A stretch of 64,000 nt of DNA from an uncultured bacterium (GTDB taxonomy: Bacteria; Bdellovibrionota_C; UBA2361; CALJRW01), in the NCBI GenBank assembly GCA_937976335.1, contig CALJRW010000050.1, positions 1,335-65,334 on the forward strand, given 5' to 3'. Positions within the stretch are counted from its first letter, which is position 1; each line of letters begins with the position of its first letter. Under the pieces are notes generated by a model. The model did not search any database. It saw nothing but the letters and a program-made list of their open reading frames with translations, and had not been told where the DNA came from. Made by a program: the position numbers and the translations under genes. Positions 8,698 through 54,141 of this stretch are shown piece after piece.

Positions 8698-9993
8698 TTA
8701 CCAAAAAATAATTTTTTCTGGTTTTATCATTCTTCTGAGAGCTCCAATTAAGTACATAGAACCACATATTAAGATTGGAATATCTTTATTATCTTCTAAC
8801 GATCTTATAAAGCCACTATAATCCTTATCCCAAACGAAACTTCTTATATCAAAACTCGATATATAATCTTCATAATCTTTTATCTTTAATTTTCTATGAC
8901 TATCTGGACTTAAAATATGCCAAGCTCTAGCCTTAGGAATTAACGTAGTAATCATTTCTTTCCAATTCTTAGTTTCTAGGGCCCCAAAAGCTACTTCAAT
9001 TTTCGAATCATACTTATTATTGACATAATTACTTAAGGCTTTAATCCCTCCTATATTATGAGCGCAATCGAGTATAACTCTCCTACCCTTATAATTAAAC
9101 TCTTCTATTCTTCCTGGCCAAAAAAATTTATTTAATCCAGTATTAATTTTTTCTTTACTGATACCTAGATAACAAGCAACTGCAATGGATAAAGCAATAT
9201 TTTTTACTTGGTGTATGCCTTTTAAAGGAGGGGTAAATTCTAATAAATCCTTACCTTCCCAAGAAAATAAAGCCTTACCTTTATCACTTATCATTTGAAT
9301 TTTAAAATCACGATTAAGAACGAATGCTGAAGAATTCTTAGCCTTTGCAACGTCAAGAATAACCTTTAAAGCTTCATTAGAGACTTCTCCAACAAAAACA
9401 GGCACTCCTTCTTTAATAATCCCTGCTTTTTCGAAAGCAATTTTCTCTAAGGTATTGCCTAAGATATGAGTATGGTCGTAAGAGATGGAAGTGATGATAG
9501 AAGCTTCAGGTTTAGTTAAAACATTAGTCGCATCAAGTCGACCTCCCAAACCTACTTCAAAAACTCCCCAATCGAGATCTTTAAAAGCTAAGAAAGCTAT
9601 AACAGCCATTGTTTCCCAATAACTTAATTTTACGTTAGCTAATTCTACATGTTTTTTAACAACTAAAGCCAATTTGTCTAACTCTGTATCAGAAATAGAT
9701 TTTCCATTTATAACAAATCTTTCATTCACCTCTTGTAAATTAGGAGATACGTTAAAACCAATATTTTTAGATATTTCAGAAAGAATACTAGCAATACTTA
9801 CTAAAACGGAACCTTTGCCATTAGTTCCTGCGATATGAATAGATTTTGGTTTGTCTTGAGGGTTATCTAGATCTTTAACAATCTTAGATATAACTTCTAA
9901 GTTGAAATCTCCCTTTCCTCCCCAAAGAGCTAGTGAATTGATATAATCAAAACCTTTGCCAATCTTATTTTTAAACGAATCTATCTGTCCCAC
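8698..9993 (-). CDS. folC: Folylpolyglutamate synthase / dihydrofolate synthase
   Basis: 431 aa. HIAGTNGKGS P-loop of the Mur ligase family and FolC-like architecture. The predicted GTG start lies inside palindrome 1. Confidence 0.8.
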   Translation of the reverse strand: MGQIDSFKNKIGKGFDYINSLALWGGKGDFNLEVISKIVKDLDNPQDKPKSIHIAGTNGKGSVLVSIASILSEISKNIGFNVSPNLQEVNERFVINGKSISDTELDKLALVVKKHVELANVKLSYWETMAVIAFLAFKDLDWGVFEVGLGGRLDATNVLTKPEASIITSISYDHTHILGNTLEKIAFEKAGIIKEGVPVFVGEVSNEALKVILDVAKAKNSSAFVLNRDFKIQMISDKGKALFSWEGKDLLEFTPPLKGIHQVKNIALSIAVACYLGISKEKINTGLNKFFWPGRIEEFNYKGRRVILDCAHNIGGIKALSNYVNNKYDSKIEVAFGALETKNWKEMITTLIPKARAWHILSPDSHRKLKIKDYEDYISSFDIRSFVWDKDYSGFIRSLEDNKDIPILICGSMYLIGALRRMIKPEKIIFW

Positions 9994-10053
9994 AGTGGGA
10001 CATCTTATACTAAATCACGATATATGAAAAATTTCCTGTCCCACCGTGGGACA
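9986..10053. promoter_or_regulatory. Two 17-bp perfect palindromes (candidate parS centromere sites) flanking an iteron-like ATCACGATAT
   Basis: TGTCCCACAGTGGGACA (9986-10002) and TGTCCCACCGTGGGACA (10037-10053), immediately 3' of parB. Confidence 0.5.
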
Positions 10054-10101
10054 CTTAAGCTGTAGGATAGGTGATTTGAAACTTAAAAAAGCATCAAATC
10101 A

Positions 10102-10971
10102 TCAAGATAGAAAAGCTCTAAAAATTGCCTGTAAATCTGTTTCTGAGTAGAAATCTACAGTTATTTTTCCCTTCTCATTATTCTTAGAGGAACGAACTAA
10201 ATTTACTTTTAAACCGAGAGCTTTTTGCATTTCATCAATTAGCCTTACATCCTCAGGACTTTTAGCTTTTTGTTTGTTTTTTGCTTTACCTGAACTCTTC
10301 TTTGTTTTCTTTGGACCTAAAGCTTCAATCTCAGTTCTAGTTAAATTATCTATACTAGCTAAAAGCTCACTTCTACGTTTAGGATCTGAAATCTTAGATA
10401 GAGCAAGAATTTTAGACTCGGGTGCTCCCTGTCTTAAAGCATTAAGTAAATCATCAGGTAAATCCAAAAGATCTAAGCTTCTTTGAACTGAGCTCTTAGA
10501 AATGCCTAAACGTCTTGCAATTTCTCTTATAGATAAATCATACGCAGCTTTTAGTGCATCAATTGCATGCGACTTTTCTAAAGAAGTAAGGTTTTGTCTC
10601 TGAATATTTTCAACTAGCTGTATGGCTAAAGTTCTAGCGCCACCATCATCATCAGCAGTATCAACGATTGCAGGCACTGCGCTTAAACCAGCAATTTTAG
10701 AAGCCCTAAATCTTCTCTCGCCGGATACTAAGTTATACTTACCGGGAGTTTTTCCAGGTCTAACCAAAAGAGGAGCAAGAACGCCGTATTCTTTGATTGA
10801 ACTTGCTAACTCATTTAAAGCAGAATCTTCAAAGTATACTCTTGGCTGATTAGTATCTCTTACGATTGCCGCAATAGGAATTTGTCTATAAGGAATACCA
10901 GAGCCTTGTCTCTCTACTATAGTTGGTCCGGTCGATAGTGGGTCTTTTGCTAATCCAAACTTTCTAGCCAT
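10102..10971 (-). CDS. parB: ParB/Spo0J partition protein
   Basis: LVSGERRFRAS ParB box, HTH region SIREIARRLGISKSSVQRSL, 8-nt overlap with parA. Confidence 0.9.
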   Translation of the reverse strand: MARKFGLAKDPLSTGPTIVERQGSGIPYRQIPIAAIVRDTNQPRVYFEDSALNELASSIKEYGVLAPLLVRPGKTPGKYNLVSGERRFRASKIAGLSAVPAIVDTADDDGGARTLAIQLVENIQRQNLTSLEKSHAIDALKAAYDLSIREIARRLGISKSSVQRSLDLLDLPDDLLNALRQGAPESKILALSKISDPKRRSELLASIDNLTRTEIEALGPKKTKKSSGKAKNKQKAKSPEDVRLIDEMQKALGLKVNLVRSSKNNEKGKITVDFYSETDLQAIFRAFLS

Positions 10972-11752
10972 TTAAAATCTCCTCTGCTATTGCACCATAA
11001 TCCTCAGCACCTGAAGACTTTGGAGCATACTCAAAGATAGTTTGCCCCTTAGAAGGTGCTTCAGCAAGTGAAACATTACTACGAATTACACTATCAAAAA
11101 CTAGTTCACCAAAATATGATCTAATAGTTTCTGAAACAGCCCTAGCTAAACGCTTTCTCGCATCGTGCATACATATAAGAACTCCTCCAACTTCAAGTTC
11201 TTGGTTATAAACCCCTCTTACTTGATCAATGGTATCAAGTAACTGTCTTACGCCGTGTAGAGCAAGATACTCGCTCTGAACTGGAATTATCACCTTATTG
11301 CATGCAGCAAGAGCATTTAAGGTTAAAAGACCAAGAGTGGGAGGGCAGTCGATTAGAACTACATCATATTTGTCAGAAATTTTGCTTAAGCTTTTCTTTA
11401 AGAGTAATTCTCTTCCCACAGCGCCACCTAGTTCTAAGTCAGCTGCACTTAACAATAAGCTAGAAGGGGCAACATAAAGATTTTTAGATCTCTCAATAAT
11501 TACTTCATCAACCGTTTTAGTACCTTTTAGAACATCATAAATAGTAAATTCTGGAACAGGTCTTGTTAATTCTGGGTTCTCAGGATTCTCTTCTCCTGAA
11601 AGACCTAAATGTGTAGTTAGATTACTTTGAGCATCTATATCTACAAGTAGGACTTTTTTTCCTTTATTAGCTAAAGCTGAGCCTATATTTACAGTGCTAG
11701 TAGTTTTGCCAACACCACCTTTTTGATTTAAAATACTAATTATTACAGACAT
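10964..11752 (-). CDS. parA: ParA/Soj partition ATPase
   Basis: Deviant Walker A NQKGGVGKTT, 262 aa. Confidence 0.9.
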   Translation of the reverse strand: MSVIISILNQKGGVGKTTSTVNIGSALANKGKKVLLVDIDAQSNLTTHLGLSGEENPENPELTRPVPEFTIYDVLKGTKTVDEVIIERSKNLYVAPSSLLLSAADLELGGAVGRELLLKKSLSKISDKYDVVLIDCPPTLGLLTLNALAACNKVIIPVQSEYLALHGVRQLLDTIDQVRGVYNQELEVGGVLICMHDARKRLARAVSETIRSYFGELVFDSVIRSNVSLAEAPSKGQTIFEYAPKSSGAEDYGAIAEEILNG

Positions 11753-12169
11753 TTAGTTTTAAGCTCCCCTTAGATGAATTACCTAGATAACATAAGTTAT
11801 CGTGATCTTCCATAAAAATACAACAATTCTTTTCATTCTTAAATAAAAAACTACATATCAGATCACGATTGACGAATTTGCATATCGTGTATTGATATTA
11901 ATTATTATACATAGTGAAACGAAATAAGCTTATATAGTGCATGGAAGTTAGTATTCACGTGTAACGAAATTAGCAATATCGTGACTCAAATTAAGGTTAA
12001 ACGTGCTCTGAAGTTAGAACTCTCGTGATTAGAAATAAGTTATATCGTGAAACAACATAAAAAAAGTTAGATAAACTTCTGAAATTAGCTTGATATTTGT
12101 AAGCTTACTAAATAACAATATAACTTATTTAACTTTGTTAAACTACAAAGGTTGGTTTAGAATAAATTT
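11753..12169. other. Putative iteron-type replication origin (oriV-like): iteron array plus AT-rich region between divergent parA and rep
   Basis: Six or more copies of core (A)TCGTGA in both orientations: AAGTTATCGTGATC 11794, GATCACGATTG 11861, CATATCGTGT 11881, AATATCGTGAC 11965, CTCTCGTGATT 12020, AAGTTATATCGTGAAAC 12037. The companion motifs GAAGTTAG and ACGAAAT(T)AGC are also repeated. AT-rich stretch 12054-12169. Confidence 0.6.
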
Positions 12170-13690
12170 ATGAGTAATTCCGAAAGTTCAAATAATATTA
12201 GAACTTCAAAACATGCAGGTATTCAAATTTCTCGAGATGAAATGAATCTTGCTGAATTTCCTATTACGGTACTTTCAACTAGAAGTAATCCAAATATTAA
12301 AACTCTTGAGTTTAGTGATAACATTATTGGGAAAAACGGAAAAGAAACAAAGCGTTCTTGGATAATTACAGGAGCTGATAAATTTGGCCTTCCTACATCT
12401 TCAGATGATGAAGTTTTACTAGGTCTTTTAAAGCTTTCTGTTGATGAAGGTTTAAATGAACCAAAAATTTATTTTACTCGTTATGAGTTATTAAAAATAC
12501 TTCGCTGGACTACTGAAGGACGAAGCTACAAACGTTTGCAAAATGCTCTGGATAGGTTAAGTGGGGTCAGGATTAAGGCCACTAATGCCTTTTATGACAA
12601 TGAATCTAAATCTCATAGTACTAAAAACTTTGGCTTAATTGATGCCTATGAGATTAATGATGGAAGAGATGCTGGAGTTAAACCTAGCTTCTTTATTTGG
12701 AGTGACGAACTATTTAAATCCTTTAAGAGTGGATTTATTAAAAAGCTAGATTTAGATTATTTTCTAAGGCTTAGGAGTGCCGTTTCTAAAAGATTATACA
12801 GATATCTTGATAAACATTTTTGGTACAAGTCTAAAATAAAAATAAATTTGTTCATACTAGCGCACGAAAAAATAGGCGTCTCCAGAAATTACAAGTATGC
12901 AAGTGCTCTAAGACAACAACTAGATCCGGCAATTGAAGAATTAATTGCTTCAGGTTTTATTTCTGAATGTGAATATGTAGGAAAAGGTAAGGGAACTGAA
13001 GTAATTTTTTATTCTGGAAATGCTCGTCCAAGAGTTTTGGATAAAGGGAAAAAAACTAATAATCAAGAAACTCCTAAAAAAAATACCCAAATTAGTATTA
13101 ACTTATCAAAAAAACCATTAAAATTTGACGACTCCGAATCAAACAAAAAAATGAACTTAAGAGACTCGCTCTTATCTAAATTACGAAATAGAGGGTTAAA
13201 AGAAAAACAAGCTGAAGCACTGCTTCCAGATAATCAAAATACATTGGAAAGAATTGATAAAATTATTGTTTATTTTGATAATCTTGTAAGAAATGATTCC
13301 GTAAGAATTTCAAGAAGTCCTGTTGGATTTTTATATAGAGCTGTTGAAAAGCCTCATGAATTTGTTTTGCCTGATGAAGCAATGAGTTCAAAAACTAAGC
13401 GCTCAAGTGTAGTTATTAGTAAGGAATCTGATCAATCAAAACATAGAAAGGAATATGAAAAAGATAGAGCGAAACAGATAGTAAATATAAAAAGAGAAAT
13501 AGAAGCTAATATGCTGTTACAAATTAGATCTGAAACTGAGAAAGGCTTAGTGCAGTTCAAAGAAAAAATTCCAAGAGAGCAATATGAAGCTTCAATAGAA
13601 CACCGAGTTGATGAACACTTAGCAAAGCTTTTTGCTATTCCTACATTTGAAGAATGGAGTAGGGGTGAAGAATGGAGTAGGGGAGAGTAG
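12170..13690 (+). CDS. Plasmid-type replication initiator protein (RepA-like)
   Basis: 506 aa immediately downstream of the iteron array. The N-terminal RDEMNLAEFPITVLS is reminiscent of the 'replication initiator protein A' family. The C-terminus ends in the tandem EEWSRGE repeat. Call rests on position and weak recall. Confidence 0.5.
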   Translation: MSNSESSNNIRTSKHAGIQISRDEMNLAEFPITVLSTRSNPNIKTLEFSDNIIGKNGKETKRSWIITGADKFGLPTSSDDEVLLGLLKLSVDEGLNEPKIYFTRYELLKILRWTTEGRSYKRLQNALDRLSGVRIKATNAFYDNESKSHSTKNFGLIDAYEINDGRDAGVKPSFFIWSDELFKSFKSGFIKKLDLDYFLRLRSAVSKRLYRYLDKHFWYKSKIKINLFILAHEKIGVSRNYKYASALRQQLDPAIEELIASGFISECEYVGKGKGTEVIFYSGNARPRVLDKGKKTNNQETPKKNTQISINLSKKPLKFDDSESNKKMNLRDSLLSKLRNRGLKEKQAEALLPDNQNTLERIDKIIVYFDNLVRNDSVRISRSPVGFLYRAVEKPHEFVLPDEAMSSKTKRSSVVISKESDQSKHRKEYEKDRAKQIVNIKREIEANMLLQIRSETEKGLVQFKEKIPREQYEASIEHRVDEHLAKLFAIPTFEEWSRGEEWSRGE

Positions 13691-13759: not shown

Positions 13760-14389
13760 ATGACAAAGGAAATAGAGAATTGGGTTAGCAAACTTTTAAT
13801 CTCACCTGGGCAAAGTACACTTGGAGTTTGTGGATTTGGTGGAACCGGTAAATCTACGGTTATGCGTGATTTAAGTGCAAAATTTCGAGATTCTTGCGTT
13901 GTTTTTGAAACAGACTGGTACATGACTCATAGCAGTAAAGAAAGGAGGGAGGGGATAGCTCGCGCCATAGAGAGCAATATAGAACATGAATTAAATTTTT
14001 GGAGCTCCCCAATTAATTGGTACGATTGGCAAGAATTAACAAATGATTTGTCAGAACTAATGGCTGAAGGCCAACTTTTGAGACAAGGTTTCTGGCGTTC
14101 ATCAACAGGGGAAAAGGATTTATCCATATCTCTTTCATTAAAAGCAAATGCTGTTATTTTAGTCGATGGTATATATTTGCTTCACGATCCAATAAGAAGC
14201 TTGTTAGATGCAGTAATAATGCTCGAAGTTGATGTAGAAGAAGCCTTGGCTAGGTCTATAGCTCGGGATAAACATCGTAGTCCGCCATCCCGTCAAGAGT
14301 TTAAGAAGCAAGTAGCATATTCTCATGATATTCCTTATTTCGAAAAATGGAGAAGTTCTATAGATGAAATAGTTATGTTTGAAACCTGA
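13760..14389 (+). CDS. P-loop kinase, uridine kinase/phosphoribulokinase family
   Basis: GFGGTGKST Walker A, and ILVDGIY...LLDAVIMLEVDVEEALARSIARD matching the udk/PRK pattern. Confidence 0.6.
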   Translation: MTKEIENWVSKLLISPGQSTLGVCGFGGTGKSTVMRDLSAKFRDSCVVFETDWYMTHSSKERREGIARAIESNIEHELNFWSSPINWYDWQELTNDLSELMAEGQLLRQGFWRSSTGEKDLSISLSLKANAVILVDGIYLLHDPIRSLLDAVIMLEVDVEEALARSIARDKHRSPPSRQEFKKQVAYSHDIPYFEKWRSSIDEIVMFET

Positions 14390-18884: not shown

Positions 18885-19448
18885 ATGACAAATCAAAGAA
18901 AATTATTTGTAAGCAACATTGATTTTGAGGTTAATGAAACCACTCTTAAGGATATGTTTGGAGAGCACGGAACCCCATTAAGTGTAGTAATTGCCGTAGA
19001 TAAAGAAACAAAACGTTCTAAAGGTTTTGCTTTTGTTGAAATGTCTTCTGAAGACGAAGCAAAGAAAGCTGTAGAAGCTCTTAACGATTCTAAAGTTAAT
19101 GGTCGTTCAATGAAAGTAACCTATGATAAGGGAAGTGGTGGTCAAACAAAAAGTTTTTCTGGAGGCCCAAACAAGAGAGGTGGTCACGGTGGAAAAAAGC
19201 AAAGAGAAATGCTTCCTCCAATTCAACGTATTCAGTTATTTAGAAAGAAAACTAAATCAGATCCATTTACTAGCGATCCTAAACGAACTACAGATTATCG
19301 TGATGTAGCTTTTCTCGCTCAGTATTTAAGTGAAACTGGAAAAATTCAATCGAGAAAACATACAGGGCTTAGTGCATTTCATCAAAGAAAAATTACTAAA
19401 GCGATAAAACGTGCTCAAAGTCTAGGTTTAATGCCATATAGTCGATAA
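18885..19448 (+). CDS. rpsR: RRM (RNA-recognition motif) domain fused to 30S ribosomal protein bS18
   Basis: N-terminus: RNP-1-like KGFAFVEM and RNP-2-like LFVSNI. Gly-rich linker. C-terminus DYRDVAFLAQYLSETGKIQSRKHTGLSAFHQRKITKAIKRAQSLGLMPY aligns to the bS18 core DYKD..L..FI.E.GKI.P.R.TG..AK.QR.L..AIKRAR.L.LLPY. Confidence 0.75.
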   Translation: MTNQRKLFVSNIDFEVNETTLKDMFGEHGTPLSVVIAVDKETKRSKGFAFVEMSSEDEAKKAVEALNDSKVNGRSMKVTYDKGSGGQTKSFSGGPNKRGGHGGKKQREMLPPIQRIQLFRKKTKSDPFTSDPKRTTDYRDVAFLAQYLSETGKIQSRKHTGLSAFHQRKITKAIKRAQSLGLMPYSR

Positions 19449-52761: not shown

Positions 52762-54141
52762 TCAAATTTCATATCTTTCTAGGTACTTAGGCATAAAAGT
52801 ATCCCAATTATTCTCTTTTTTCAAAGTTTTAGCAAAGCTTTCAGCGCTGTCTTTTTCTCCATGTACAACAGCAACTTTTCCAGGATTACCTGAGCATTCT
52901 TTAGTCCATCTTAGTAGTTCACTTTTATCAGCATGAGCACTTAATCCACTAAGTGTTTCAATTTGTGCCTTGATAGGAATCTCATCACCAAATAATCGTA
53001 ATTTTTCGGCACCGCTTTGTATCCAATCTCCTCTACCTCCCTTTGGTTGGTAGCCAACAAAGAGAACAGTATTTCTTTCACTATCAATGCGATGATACAG
53101 ATGATGTAAAATTCTTCCACCCATTAACATACCACTAGCCGAAATTAGTATCATTGGTTCATGAACATTATTTAGTTTTTTTGATGCGGCAACATCTTTA
53201 ATTAATGCTAATTTTGAAGTTGAGAAAGGGTTGTTTCCAGCATGAAGAATATCAAGAGCATTCTTATCATACTCTTGAACATGTTTTTTATAAATTTCGG
53301 TTGCATCTGTAGCCATTGGGCTATCTAAAATTACTGGAATATCAGGAATAAGATTTTTTTCTTTAAGTTCTCTAATGAAGTAAAGGAGAAGTTGAGCTCT
53401 ACCCACTGCAAAGCTTGGTATTACTACAGCTCCTTTTCTTTTGGTAGTTTCGTTAATGATAGTAGCAAGCTTTGTAGAAACATCATAATCTTTATGTTCT
53501 CTATCTCCATATGTTGATTCAATTAAGAGCAAATCTCCAAAATCAACAGGTTTTGGATCGAGCAGAATTGGAATGGAATATCTTCCTATATCTCCAGAAA
53601 AAACAATTTTTTTCCCATCAATTTTAAGTTCAATTGAAGCTGCTCCTAGGATGTGACCCATATGTCTCCATTTCGCTGTTACGCCTGGAGCAATGTCAAT
53701 CTCTGTATCATAAGAAACTGCTGAAAGAAGGTTCAGGCTTTTTTGAGCATCTTTTTGAGTAAAAAGTGGCAGTGGTGGAATGTGTCTAGATTTTTTCTTT
53801 CTTTTTCTATACTCAGCTTCTTGTTCTTGGAGATAGCCCATATCAGGCAGTAAAATTTTAAGTAAATCTAGTGTTGCTTCAGTACAAAAAGCTGGGCAAT
53901 CTAATCCAAGGGTATGATATCTTGGAAAAAGTCCAGAATGATCTATATGAGCATGAGTAAAAAGAACAGCATCAACATTTTCTAATTTAAAGTCAGGGTC
54001 CTTCCAATTTTTTTCACGCCATTCTCTTGGCCCTTGAAATACACCACAATCCACAAGGATAGACTTATTCCCAGATTGAACAAGATATTTTGAGCCAGTA
54101 ACCGTTCCAGCGGCTCCTAAGAATGTTACAGATACAGTCAT
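52762..54141 (-). CDS. MBL-fold / beta-CASP RNA-metabolising hydrolase (RNase J-like)
   Basis: HAHIDHSG metallo-beta-lactamase motif and beta-CASP-like C-terminal region, 459 aa. Confidence 0.75.
   Translation of the reverse strand: MTVSVTFLGAAGTVTGSKYLVQSGNKSILVDCGVFQGPREWREKNWKDPDFKLENVDAVLFTHAHIDHSGLFPRYHTLGLDCPAFCTEATLDLLKILLPDMGYLQEQEAEYRKRKKKSRHIPPLPLFTQKDAQKSLNLLSAVSYDTEIDIAPGVTAKWRHMGHILGAASIELKIDGKKIVFSGDIGRYSIPILLDPKPVDFGDLLLIESTYGDREHKDYDVSTKLATIINETTKRKGAVVIPSFAVGRAQLLLYFIRELKEKNLIPDIPVILDSPMATDATEIYKKHVQEYDKNALDILHAGNNPFSTSKLALIKDVAASKKLNNVHEPMILISASGMLMGGRILHHLYHRIDSERNTVLFVGYQPKGGRGDWIQSGAEKLRLFGDEIPIKAQIETLSGLSAHADKSELLRWTKECSGNPGKVAVVHGEKDSAESFAKTLKKENNWDTFMPKYLERYEI

Follow-up and report, generated by a model that had tools for sequence, protein, structure and literature searches.

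The 64-kb stretch of DNA considered here (the window: 64,000 nucleotides (nt) of contig CALJRW010000050.1, from an uncultured bacterium of the Bdellovibrionota_C) raises the question of which kind of replicon is replicated from a plasmid-like module that lies among housekeeping genes. The module consists of parB (10102-10971, - strand), parA (10964-11752, - strand) and a divergent open reading frame (ORF) of 506 aa, here called rep (12170-13690, + strand), with a 417-bp gap between parA and rep in the ORF map (11753-12169). By NCBIfam its neighbours in the window, which has a G+C content of 32%, are hemB, folC, a cysQ-like phosphatase gene, pncC, fba, thrS, dusB and a Mrp antiporter, in agreement with the housekeeping assignments of folC, thrS, hemB and fba made in an earlier note on this DNA. 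That note, made from the sequence alone, offered three scenarios: a secondary replicon carrying essential genes (a chromid), a main chromosome run from a Rep/iteron origin, or an integrated plasmid. In this module an origin, active and passed on by vertical inheritance, is joined to the centromere of a large replicon with housekeeping genes. The third scenario gives way before synteny in at least 70 species and a switch in GC skew at the gap, while the first two both stand.

The 506-aa protein is an initiator of the RPA family. It scores above the curated Pfam cut-offs for PF10134 RPA (76.9 bits; cut-off 27), PF01051 Rep3_N/WH1 (28.2; 22.4) and PF07042 TrfA (23.8; 22), so that the profile hidden Markov model (HMM) search suggested in the earlier note supports its description of the gene as initiator-like. 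None of the NCBIfam models matches Rep. Among 72,556 plasmid records, the best matches are Planctomycetes genes annotated as 'replication initiator protein A' (29-33% identity over 75-86% of the protein), followed by Rubrobacter TrfA and Deinococcus megaplasmid genes. Much closer are the proteins at the head of a set of 822 homologues, of which the top 120 share 51-59% identity over most of the length and two share 68-69% over 59% of it; the database annotations of homologues already name Rep a plasmid replication initiator. Alignment within the clade (alignment A1) shows an N-terminal region of ~270 aa that is nearly invariant, with about 100 invariant columns, and in the top 120 homologues the N-terminal domain is about 74% identical to that of the window protein; the C-terminal half, which is helical, varies but keeps some conserved patches (SPVGFLYRAV, for example). 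A winged-helix (WH1-WH2) fold is predicted for Rep by the HMM matches. No solved structure matches the protein by sequence, an AlphaFold2 model is confident only past residue 200 and poor over the WH1 region, and a Foldseek search with this model gave no significant match.

The gap between parA and rep has the layout of an iteron origin. At least six (A)TCGTGA cores in both orientations had been reported in it, a count which holds for TCGTG (five copies on the + strand and one on the -) but not for the longer ATCGTGA, of which the gap holds four copies (11799+, 11863-, 11978+, 12044+) among the ten in the window (2.2 expected). The repeat is in any case not the scattered 7-mer that had been described but a direct repeat of 22 bp built around a TCGTG core, whose phased array had gone unnoticed. 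CGTG stands at 11958, 11980, 12002, 12024 and 12046, an exact 22-bp period, and the pattern CGTG-N18-CGTG-N18-CGTG has three overlapping matches, against none in shuffled sequences. The five strong cores, (T/A)CGTG at 11957, 11979, 12001, 12023 and 12045 (window unit nnTCGTGAnnnGAAnTTAG), are preceded by two degenerate units in exact register, giving a tandem array of ~7 direct iterons on the + strand (11913-12066), 105-257 nt upstream of rep (5-7 repeats). Tandem Repeats Finder missed the array because its units are only about 60-70% alike. The AT-rich stretch said to follow the iterons is present: the sequence from the last iteron to rep (12050-12169) is 79% A+T.

This arrangement is not peculiar to the window. 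When one genome per GTDB species was scanned, rep turned up in 106 genomes, and the loci of 80 of these were analysed; all 80 are uncultured metagenome-assembled genomes (MAGs) labelled Bdellovibrionota, Bdellovibrionales, Oligoflexia or Deltaproteobacteria, many of them from freshwater. Spirobacillus and Silvanigrella, which the 32% G+C had brought to mind as sources of the window, were set aside, the hits including no named relative. Divergently from rep lies parA in 72-74 of the 80 loci, followed by parB (71), folC (52-54), usually ispA (58) and a cysQ-like gene (33). The order folC-parB-parA|iterons|rep is found in every locus with enough left flank, and the right flank of rep differs between species. 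Comparison of 73 origin gaps, those of 72 relatives and of the window, with flanks of about 10 kb to the left and right of the module in each relative, shows the TCGTG core 3-10 times in nearly all of them, at a spacing of 22 bp or of 44, 66 or 88 bp. The orientation of the iterons relative to rep is constant in the relatives, and their lineage consensus is TCGTGAAttGAaatAAA. Among uncultured Bdellovibrionota, the number of species that keep the module in the same place is at least 74 and probably reaches 100 or more.

That the gap has acted as an origin is seen in the composition of the DNA around it. Cumulative GC skew in the window, which has 12 kb of sequence left of the gap, has its lowest point at 11866, within the gap, and climbs from there until about 51.8 kb. 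The mean skew of 1-kb bins pooled over 72 loci is -0.08 to -0.15 on the left of the gap (over 4 kb) and +0.02 to +0.07 on its right. Because the conserved genes on the left all lie on the - strand, the skew was corrected for strand, separating the coding-strand effect from that of replication and leaving out rep, parA and parB. The mean skew of the + strand was then -0.006 for + genes and -0.099 for - genes left of the gap, and +0.065 and -0.005, respectively, to its right. Genes on the same strand thus differ by 0.07-0.09 between the two sides across the 72 loci, and each side yields a replication term of +0.03 to +0.05 (+0.04 to +0.05 in the window alone). The skew switch is the signature of bidirectional replication from the gap over evolutionary time. 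The reading of the region as an oriV is upheld by the initiator, the phased iterons and this switch, which the earlier note had proposed looking for and which the window and the pooled loci (~10 kb per side) both show at the gap.

An integrated plasmid or decaying remnant, no longer used for replication, would account for a Rep of plasmid-type family and for the variation between species in the genes right of rep. It sits badly with almost everything else. The same position and left flank recur in at least 70 species whose Rep proteins are 40-59% identical, which indicates that the module has come down vertically; the iterons and the partition sites described below are under strong constraint, and no integrase or mobile-element genes are found among the conserved neighbours. 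The skew, moreover, changes sign exactly at the gap, in the window and in the pooled loci alike. The skew switch and the synteny together make an inert integrated plasmid very unlikely, to the point of being barely credible.

The partition genes are of a type more familiar from chromosomes, and their assignment as parA and parB is secure on Pfam, NCBIfam and solved-structure relatives. ParB (289 aa) is Spo0J-type, with an N-terminal domain carrying GERRFRA, a helix-turn-helix (HTH) and a C-terminal dimerisation domain (ParB_N, 1e-25; HTH_ParB; ParB_C; TIGR00180 above cut-off), and its best solved relatives are chromosomal Spo0J/ParB/Noc proteins, at about 1e-29 to 1e-30 as against 6e-17 for KorB. 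ParA (262 aa) is a Soj-type deviant Walker A ATPase (KGGVGKT) without an N-terminal HTH, matching AAA_31 (4e-59), CbiA and Thermus Soj (1e-51); its median identity across 72 related loci is 71.5%. Soj-like ParA (48%) and Spo0J-like ParB (32-42%) are found on plasmids and second chromosomes too, so that 'chromosomal type' describes a tendency and is no proof.

Just 3' of parB lie two 17-bp perfect palindromes, which had been suggested as plausible parS sites. parS-1 (TGTCCCACAGTGGGACA, 9986-10002) overlaps the listed GTG start of folC and parS-2 (TGTCCCACCGTGGGACA, 10037-10053) lies 48 nt 3' of the parB stop codon. Their common form, TGTCCCACNGTGGGACA, matches exactly twice in the 64 kb, both times in this cluster, in keeping with the earlier count, and never in 100 shuffles. 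It or its 15-bp core occurs in 61 of 72 related loci as 115 copies, 1-3 per locus, all but three of them (112) directly 3' of parB and at 1.8-2.5 kb from the origin gap; a few distant clade members carry TGTACCACNGTGGTACA in its place. The window half-site TGTCCCAC differs by one base, a C at position 4, from the canonical one, TGTTCCAC; the whole site corresponds to the canonical chromosomal half-site (TGTTNCAC) with this C and with one extra, unconstrained central base. The canonical 16-bp parS, tGTTNCACGTGAAACa, does not occur within 10 kb on either side of the module in the 80 loci, save for one chance-like site with two mismatches, and the 15-bp core of the palindrome is absent from the searchable literature. 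By sequence and position, the 17-bp palindromes are taken to be the parS of this lineage.

A palindrome 3' of an operon may also be an intrinsic terminator, here of parAB, and parS-2 read on the - strand (10053-10037) does score as a hairpin followed by a T run. The sequence itself, however, and not only its pairing potential, is nearly invariant in about 60 species, without compensatory changes, and for this reason the palindrome is better read as a protein site than as a terminator. The match of its half-sites to the canonical half-site save for one base, the lack of a T run at parS-1 and the recurrence of 1-3 copies per locus all point the same way. Nor is the hairpin an obvious one, since an 8-bp stem with a 1-nt loop is impossible and only a 7-bp stem with a 3-nt loop can form. 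That the palindromes are terminators rather than ParB sites is highly improbable, although it is possible that parS-2 has a dual role as ParB site and terminator.

Between the two parS sites is a lone inverted iteron core, ATCACGATAT on the + strand (10013-10022), that reads ATCGTGA on the - strand at 10015, as had been pointed out before. A CACGA core in the same orientation stands 16-21 nt before the parB-proximal parS in 22 of 52 related parB-folC spacers, and all 25 hits share this orientation. The core in the window hints at a Rep-binding site within the centromere, which could possibly couple replication and partition.

The more difficult question is which replicon of the cell is served by this origin. 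We think it probable, without being assured, that it is an essential secondary replicon (a chromid or second chromosome) beside a chromosome run from DnaA/oriC, the existence of this companion being assumed. DnaA is near-universal in bacteria, and the natural Rep/iteron origins so far described on core-gene replicons are all those of secondary replicons. Several features by which a chromid is recognised are found together here: a plasmid-type replication system, a large replicon with core genes, and conservation across a taxon. A non-canonical parS is also as expected if the partition system has to be orthogonal to a canonical one in the same cell, and the presence of similar ParA and ParB proteins on plasmids and second chromosomes speaks for the same reading. 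The size of the contigs favours a chromid as well: the largest of those bearing the module is 709 kb among about 320 sampled clade members. In the species scan, the longest rep-bearing contigs are 709, 412 and 336 kb; among the Rep homologues they extend to 601 kb, and a ParA search gave no contig longer than 601 kb. A ThrS relative (64%) lies on a contig of 1.87 Mb (JAXLVP010000002.1), the assembly of which is not among the rep-bearing ones, and the same is true of the nearest ThrS relatives of that contig (JAGORF01, a JGI contig).

Several observations weigh against a chromid. No dnaA, oriC or second parABS was seen in the flanks of the module, which extend for about 10 kb per side, and tblastn with an approximate B. 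subtilis DnaA query gave no match in the window or in the 10-kb flanks of the 80 loci, a result of little weight. ParA and ParB are closest to chromosomal Soj and Spo0J and the parS half-sites are one base from canonical, whereas known chromids usually carry clearly plasmid-type partition systems. There is also no enrichment of DnaA boxes in the 73 origin gaps, which contain a single perfect box in total and a density of one-mismatch boxes of 0.29/kb, as against a background of 0.20/kb. Many iteron replicons that need host DnaA carry such boxes, and their lack of enrichment in the gaps means that initiation at the Rep origin may not need DnaA. Finally, we infer from family and anatomy the binding of Rep to the iterons, the site of unwinding and the recruitment of the helicase, and the part of Rep that is poorly modelled is the WH1 region.

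Much of this would be natural if the main chromosome, which might also be the only one, were replicated from the module, RPA-type Rep and iterons having replaced DnaA/oriC beside an ancestral parABS, and dnaA having been lost or demoted. The Soj/Spo0J-type proteins and near-canonical half-sites would then be those of the ancestral chromosome, and the Rep origin, directly upstream of parA, would occupy the usual site of chromosomal origins. The lack of DnaA-box enrichment, the extreme conservation of Rep with its many invariant columns, and the stable synteny of the left flank with its ordinary housekeeping genes, with thrS, trpS and a gene with an S18 domain close by, would fit equally, as would contigs of at least 709 kb and the fact that chromids in Bdellovibrionota are not described in the searchable literature. 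Against this is a very low prior, since no natural free-living bacterium is known with a main chromosome run by Rep and iterons. The 17-bp parS departs from a site that is near-universal on chromosomes, no module contig exceeds 709 kb in the sample of about 320, and chromosome 2 (Chr2) of Vibrio, on which thrS sits, shows that essential genes of this type can be carried by chromids. A Rep-run main chromosome is on balance unlikely, though it deserves to be kept in view.

A fused or cointegrate chromosome is a further alternative, having DnaA/oriC elsewhere in addition to the Rep origin, with both origins firing or the Rep origin in use. Natural chromosome-chromid fusions are documented, for example in PMC8729776. 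The skew switch, showing that the site acted as an origin over evolutionary time, is compatible with such a fusion. The fusion would, however, have to be old and to have lasted in more than 70 species; bacterial replicons seldom have two active origins, and nothing in the data points to a second origin. We consider a fusion improbable.

Whichever large replicon it serves, and our preference remains for a chromid, the anatomy of the gap suggests how the origin may work. Rep monomers would bind the 5-7 direct iterons, which lie two helical turns apart and thus on one face of the DNA, and would open a flanking stretch of 79% A+T and recruit the replicative helicase. Two stretches of this composition are candidates for the unwinding region: that between the last iteron and rep, and another at 11806-11862, beyond the far end of the array. 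The latter is flanked by dispersed iteron copies. On its parA side is AAGTTATCGTGA (11794-11805, + strand), which adjoins the parA start and is a possible parAB promoter or Rep operator site. On its other side, two cores stand face to face (11863-11889), TCACGAT at 11863-11869 on the - strand and ATATCGTG at 11882-11889 on the + strand.

Regulation of rep may be built into the sequence that separates it from the array. Part of the last iteron (12033-12048, AAATAAGTTATATCGT) recurs in inverted form at 12115-12130 (ACAATATAACTTATTT, 94% complementary), giving an inverted repeat (12033-12130) that, by analogy with iteron plasmids, is a candidate operator for Rep dimers and for autorepression. Directly after the inverted half-iteron comes a promoter-like site, TTGTTA-17-TAGAAT (12135-12163), and Rep dimers probably repress rep at this half-iteron just upstream of the gene. 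A 28-nt element, gATTGTTTAACTAACTAAAAgTAAGc (also written gATTGTTTAACTAACTAAAA(G/C)TAAGc), lies between the iterons and rep, ~90 nt past the last iteron, and is at least 80% conserved in 49 distinct origins; the window copy (12132-12160) is degenerate. It is a candidate for the rep promoter, for an unwinding or loading site, or for the site of a host factor. On the partition side, the Spo0J-type ParB, which has the GERRxRA motif of the CTP-dependent clamps, would load at the two parS sites, and the Soj-type ParA would then segregate the origin copies.

The closest functional analogue of the module is Chr2 of Vibrio cholerae, also a large replicon with essential genes, on which an iteron origin lies beside its own initiator gene and parAB, and which shares clade-wide vertical inheritance and bidirectional replication with a skew switch. 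The components are nevertheless different. The Chr2 initiator RctB belongs to another family and acts on an origin with 11/12-mer iterons, 39-mers, Dam sites and a DnaA box, and ParAB2 is of plasmid type Ia with its own parS2, whereas here there is an RPA-family initiator, a 22-bp iteron period, no enrichment of DnaA boxes and a ParAB of Soj/Spo0J type.

The closest protein family is that of the plasmid RPA initiators (PF10134), found on plasmids of Planctomycetes and megaplasmids of Deinococcus/Thermus, to which Rep is joined by its HMM score of 76.9 bits. These plasmids are of 25-320 kb and patchy in distribution, in contrast to the clade Rep, which forms a distinct and tightly conserved branch at a fixed syntenic site beside housekeeping genes and on contigs of up to 709 kb. 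The classical iteron plasmids (RK2/TrfA, pPS10/RepA, F/RepE and R6K/pi) are similar in having ~22-bp direct repeats adjoining an AT-rich region and rep, and an inverted partial iteron near the rep promoter, and the Rep3_N and TrfA matches, weak but above cut-off, point in the same direction; they differ in being small replicons with DnaA boxes and a dependence on host DnaA in E. coli. Partition is closest to that of the chromosomal ParABS systems (Soj/Spo0J), with which the module shares its nearest solved ParA and ParB relatives, GERRxRA and a parS that adjoins parB and the origin. It lacks the 16-bp parS of these systems, having instead a 17-bp site with C at position 4 and a free central base, and its origin is of the Rep/iteron rather than the DnaA/oriC kind.

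About 10% of bacteria are known to have an essential replicon with a Rep/iteron origin. What is new here is the joining of such an origin, clade-wide, to a chromosomal-type ParABS with a 17-bp parS; the searchable literature holds nothing that ties Bdellovibrionota or Oligoflexia to chromids, Rep-type origins or loss of dnaA. The combination of a chromosomal-type ParABS with a Rep origin that is not enriched in DnaA boxes leaves room for a natural replacement of DnaA/oriC. There is a small but real chance that this is a free-living clade, of at least 106 species-level genomes, in which the main and possibly only chromosome is run from a plasmid-derived RPA-Rep/iteron origin, DnaA having been lost or displaced as initiator. 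Such a chromosome, if it exists, would be the natural and ancient counterpart of 'integrative suppression'. Present in more than 800 metagenomic protein clusters and in no fewer than 74 species (probably over 100), the module also provides a comparative set of iterons, 28-nt elements and 17-bp parS sites. The extra central base of the latter raises the questions of how the clamp of a Spo0J-type ParB tolerates an altered spacing of the half-sites and of whether the change provides orthogonality to a canonical system.

Some further features of the contigs and of the flanking DNA may be recorded. On the five longest rep contigs (L004, L054, L058, L064 and L005; 194-709 kb) only 7-44 kb separate the module from an end of the contig, which may be the left or the right one, and no rRNA was found at nine other contig ends near rep. 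Two rep contigs from one MAG (L003 and L059) were considered as two replicons, but the copies are 95% identical and reflect fragmentation or strain variation. The Rep protein has no exact match on record, but exact copies of ThrS and ParA are known from a 71,676-bp contig, with Logan fragments from ERR9287621; the window itself derives from a metagenome-assembled contig of 71.7 kb. Scans for tRNA and Rfam families gave no matches in the window, and in the related loci the tRNA scan gave only tRNA-Pro and tRNA-Ala, in three loci. The longest form of the folC ORF (8698-9993) begins at a GTG within parS-1, the overlap being 9986-9993; the real folC start is probably further downstream, as otherwise ParB binding would overlap it.

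Directly 3' of rep in the window is a gene for a small P-loop nucleoside triphosphatase (13760-14389, + strand), resembling uridine kinase/PRK (5e-10) and with weak matches to AAA_22 and NB-ARC, which is conserved in none of the 80 related loci. In related loci, the DNA at +2 to +6 kb from rep (as at L020:15626-16489) commonly carries an MltC-like lytic transglycosylase gene and flagellin paralogues in arrays, 43 copies in all from 25 loci, and an ankyrin-repeat protein recurs on the left flank. The genes found near the module in relatives also include trpS, flagellin paralogues and an RRM-S18 fusion. The fusion in the window (18885-19448, + strand) is a 187-aa protein in which an N-terminal RRM-type RNA-binding domain (NF058537, 1e-24) is joined to a ribosomal protein S18 domain (TIGR00165, 4e-18), and it occurs near the origin in 13 related genomes, for example at L070:13991-14557 (- strand). 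Further away, downstream of thrS-dusB, the window encodes a beta-CASP metallo-beta-lactamase ribonuclease (52762-54141, - strand), for which the closest models are the archaeal aCPSF1 and 'type VII CRISPR Cas14', its scores being far under the cut-offs of both.

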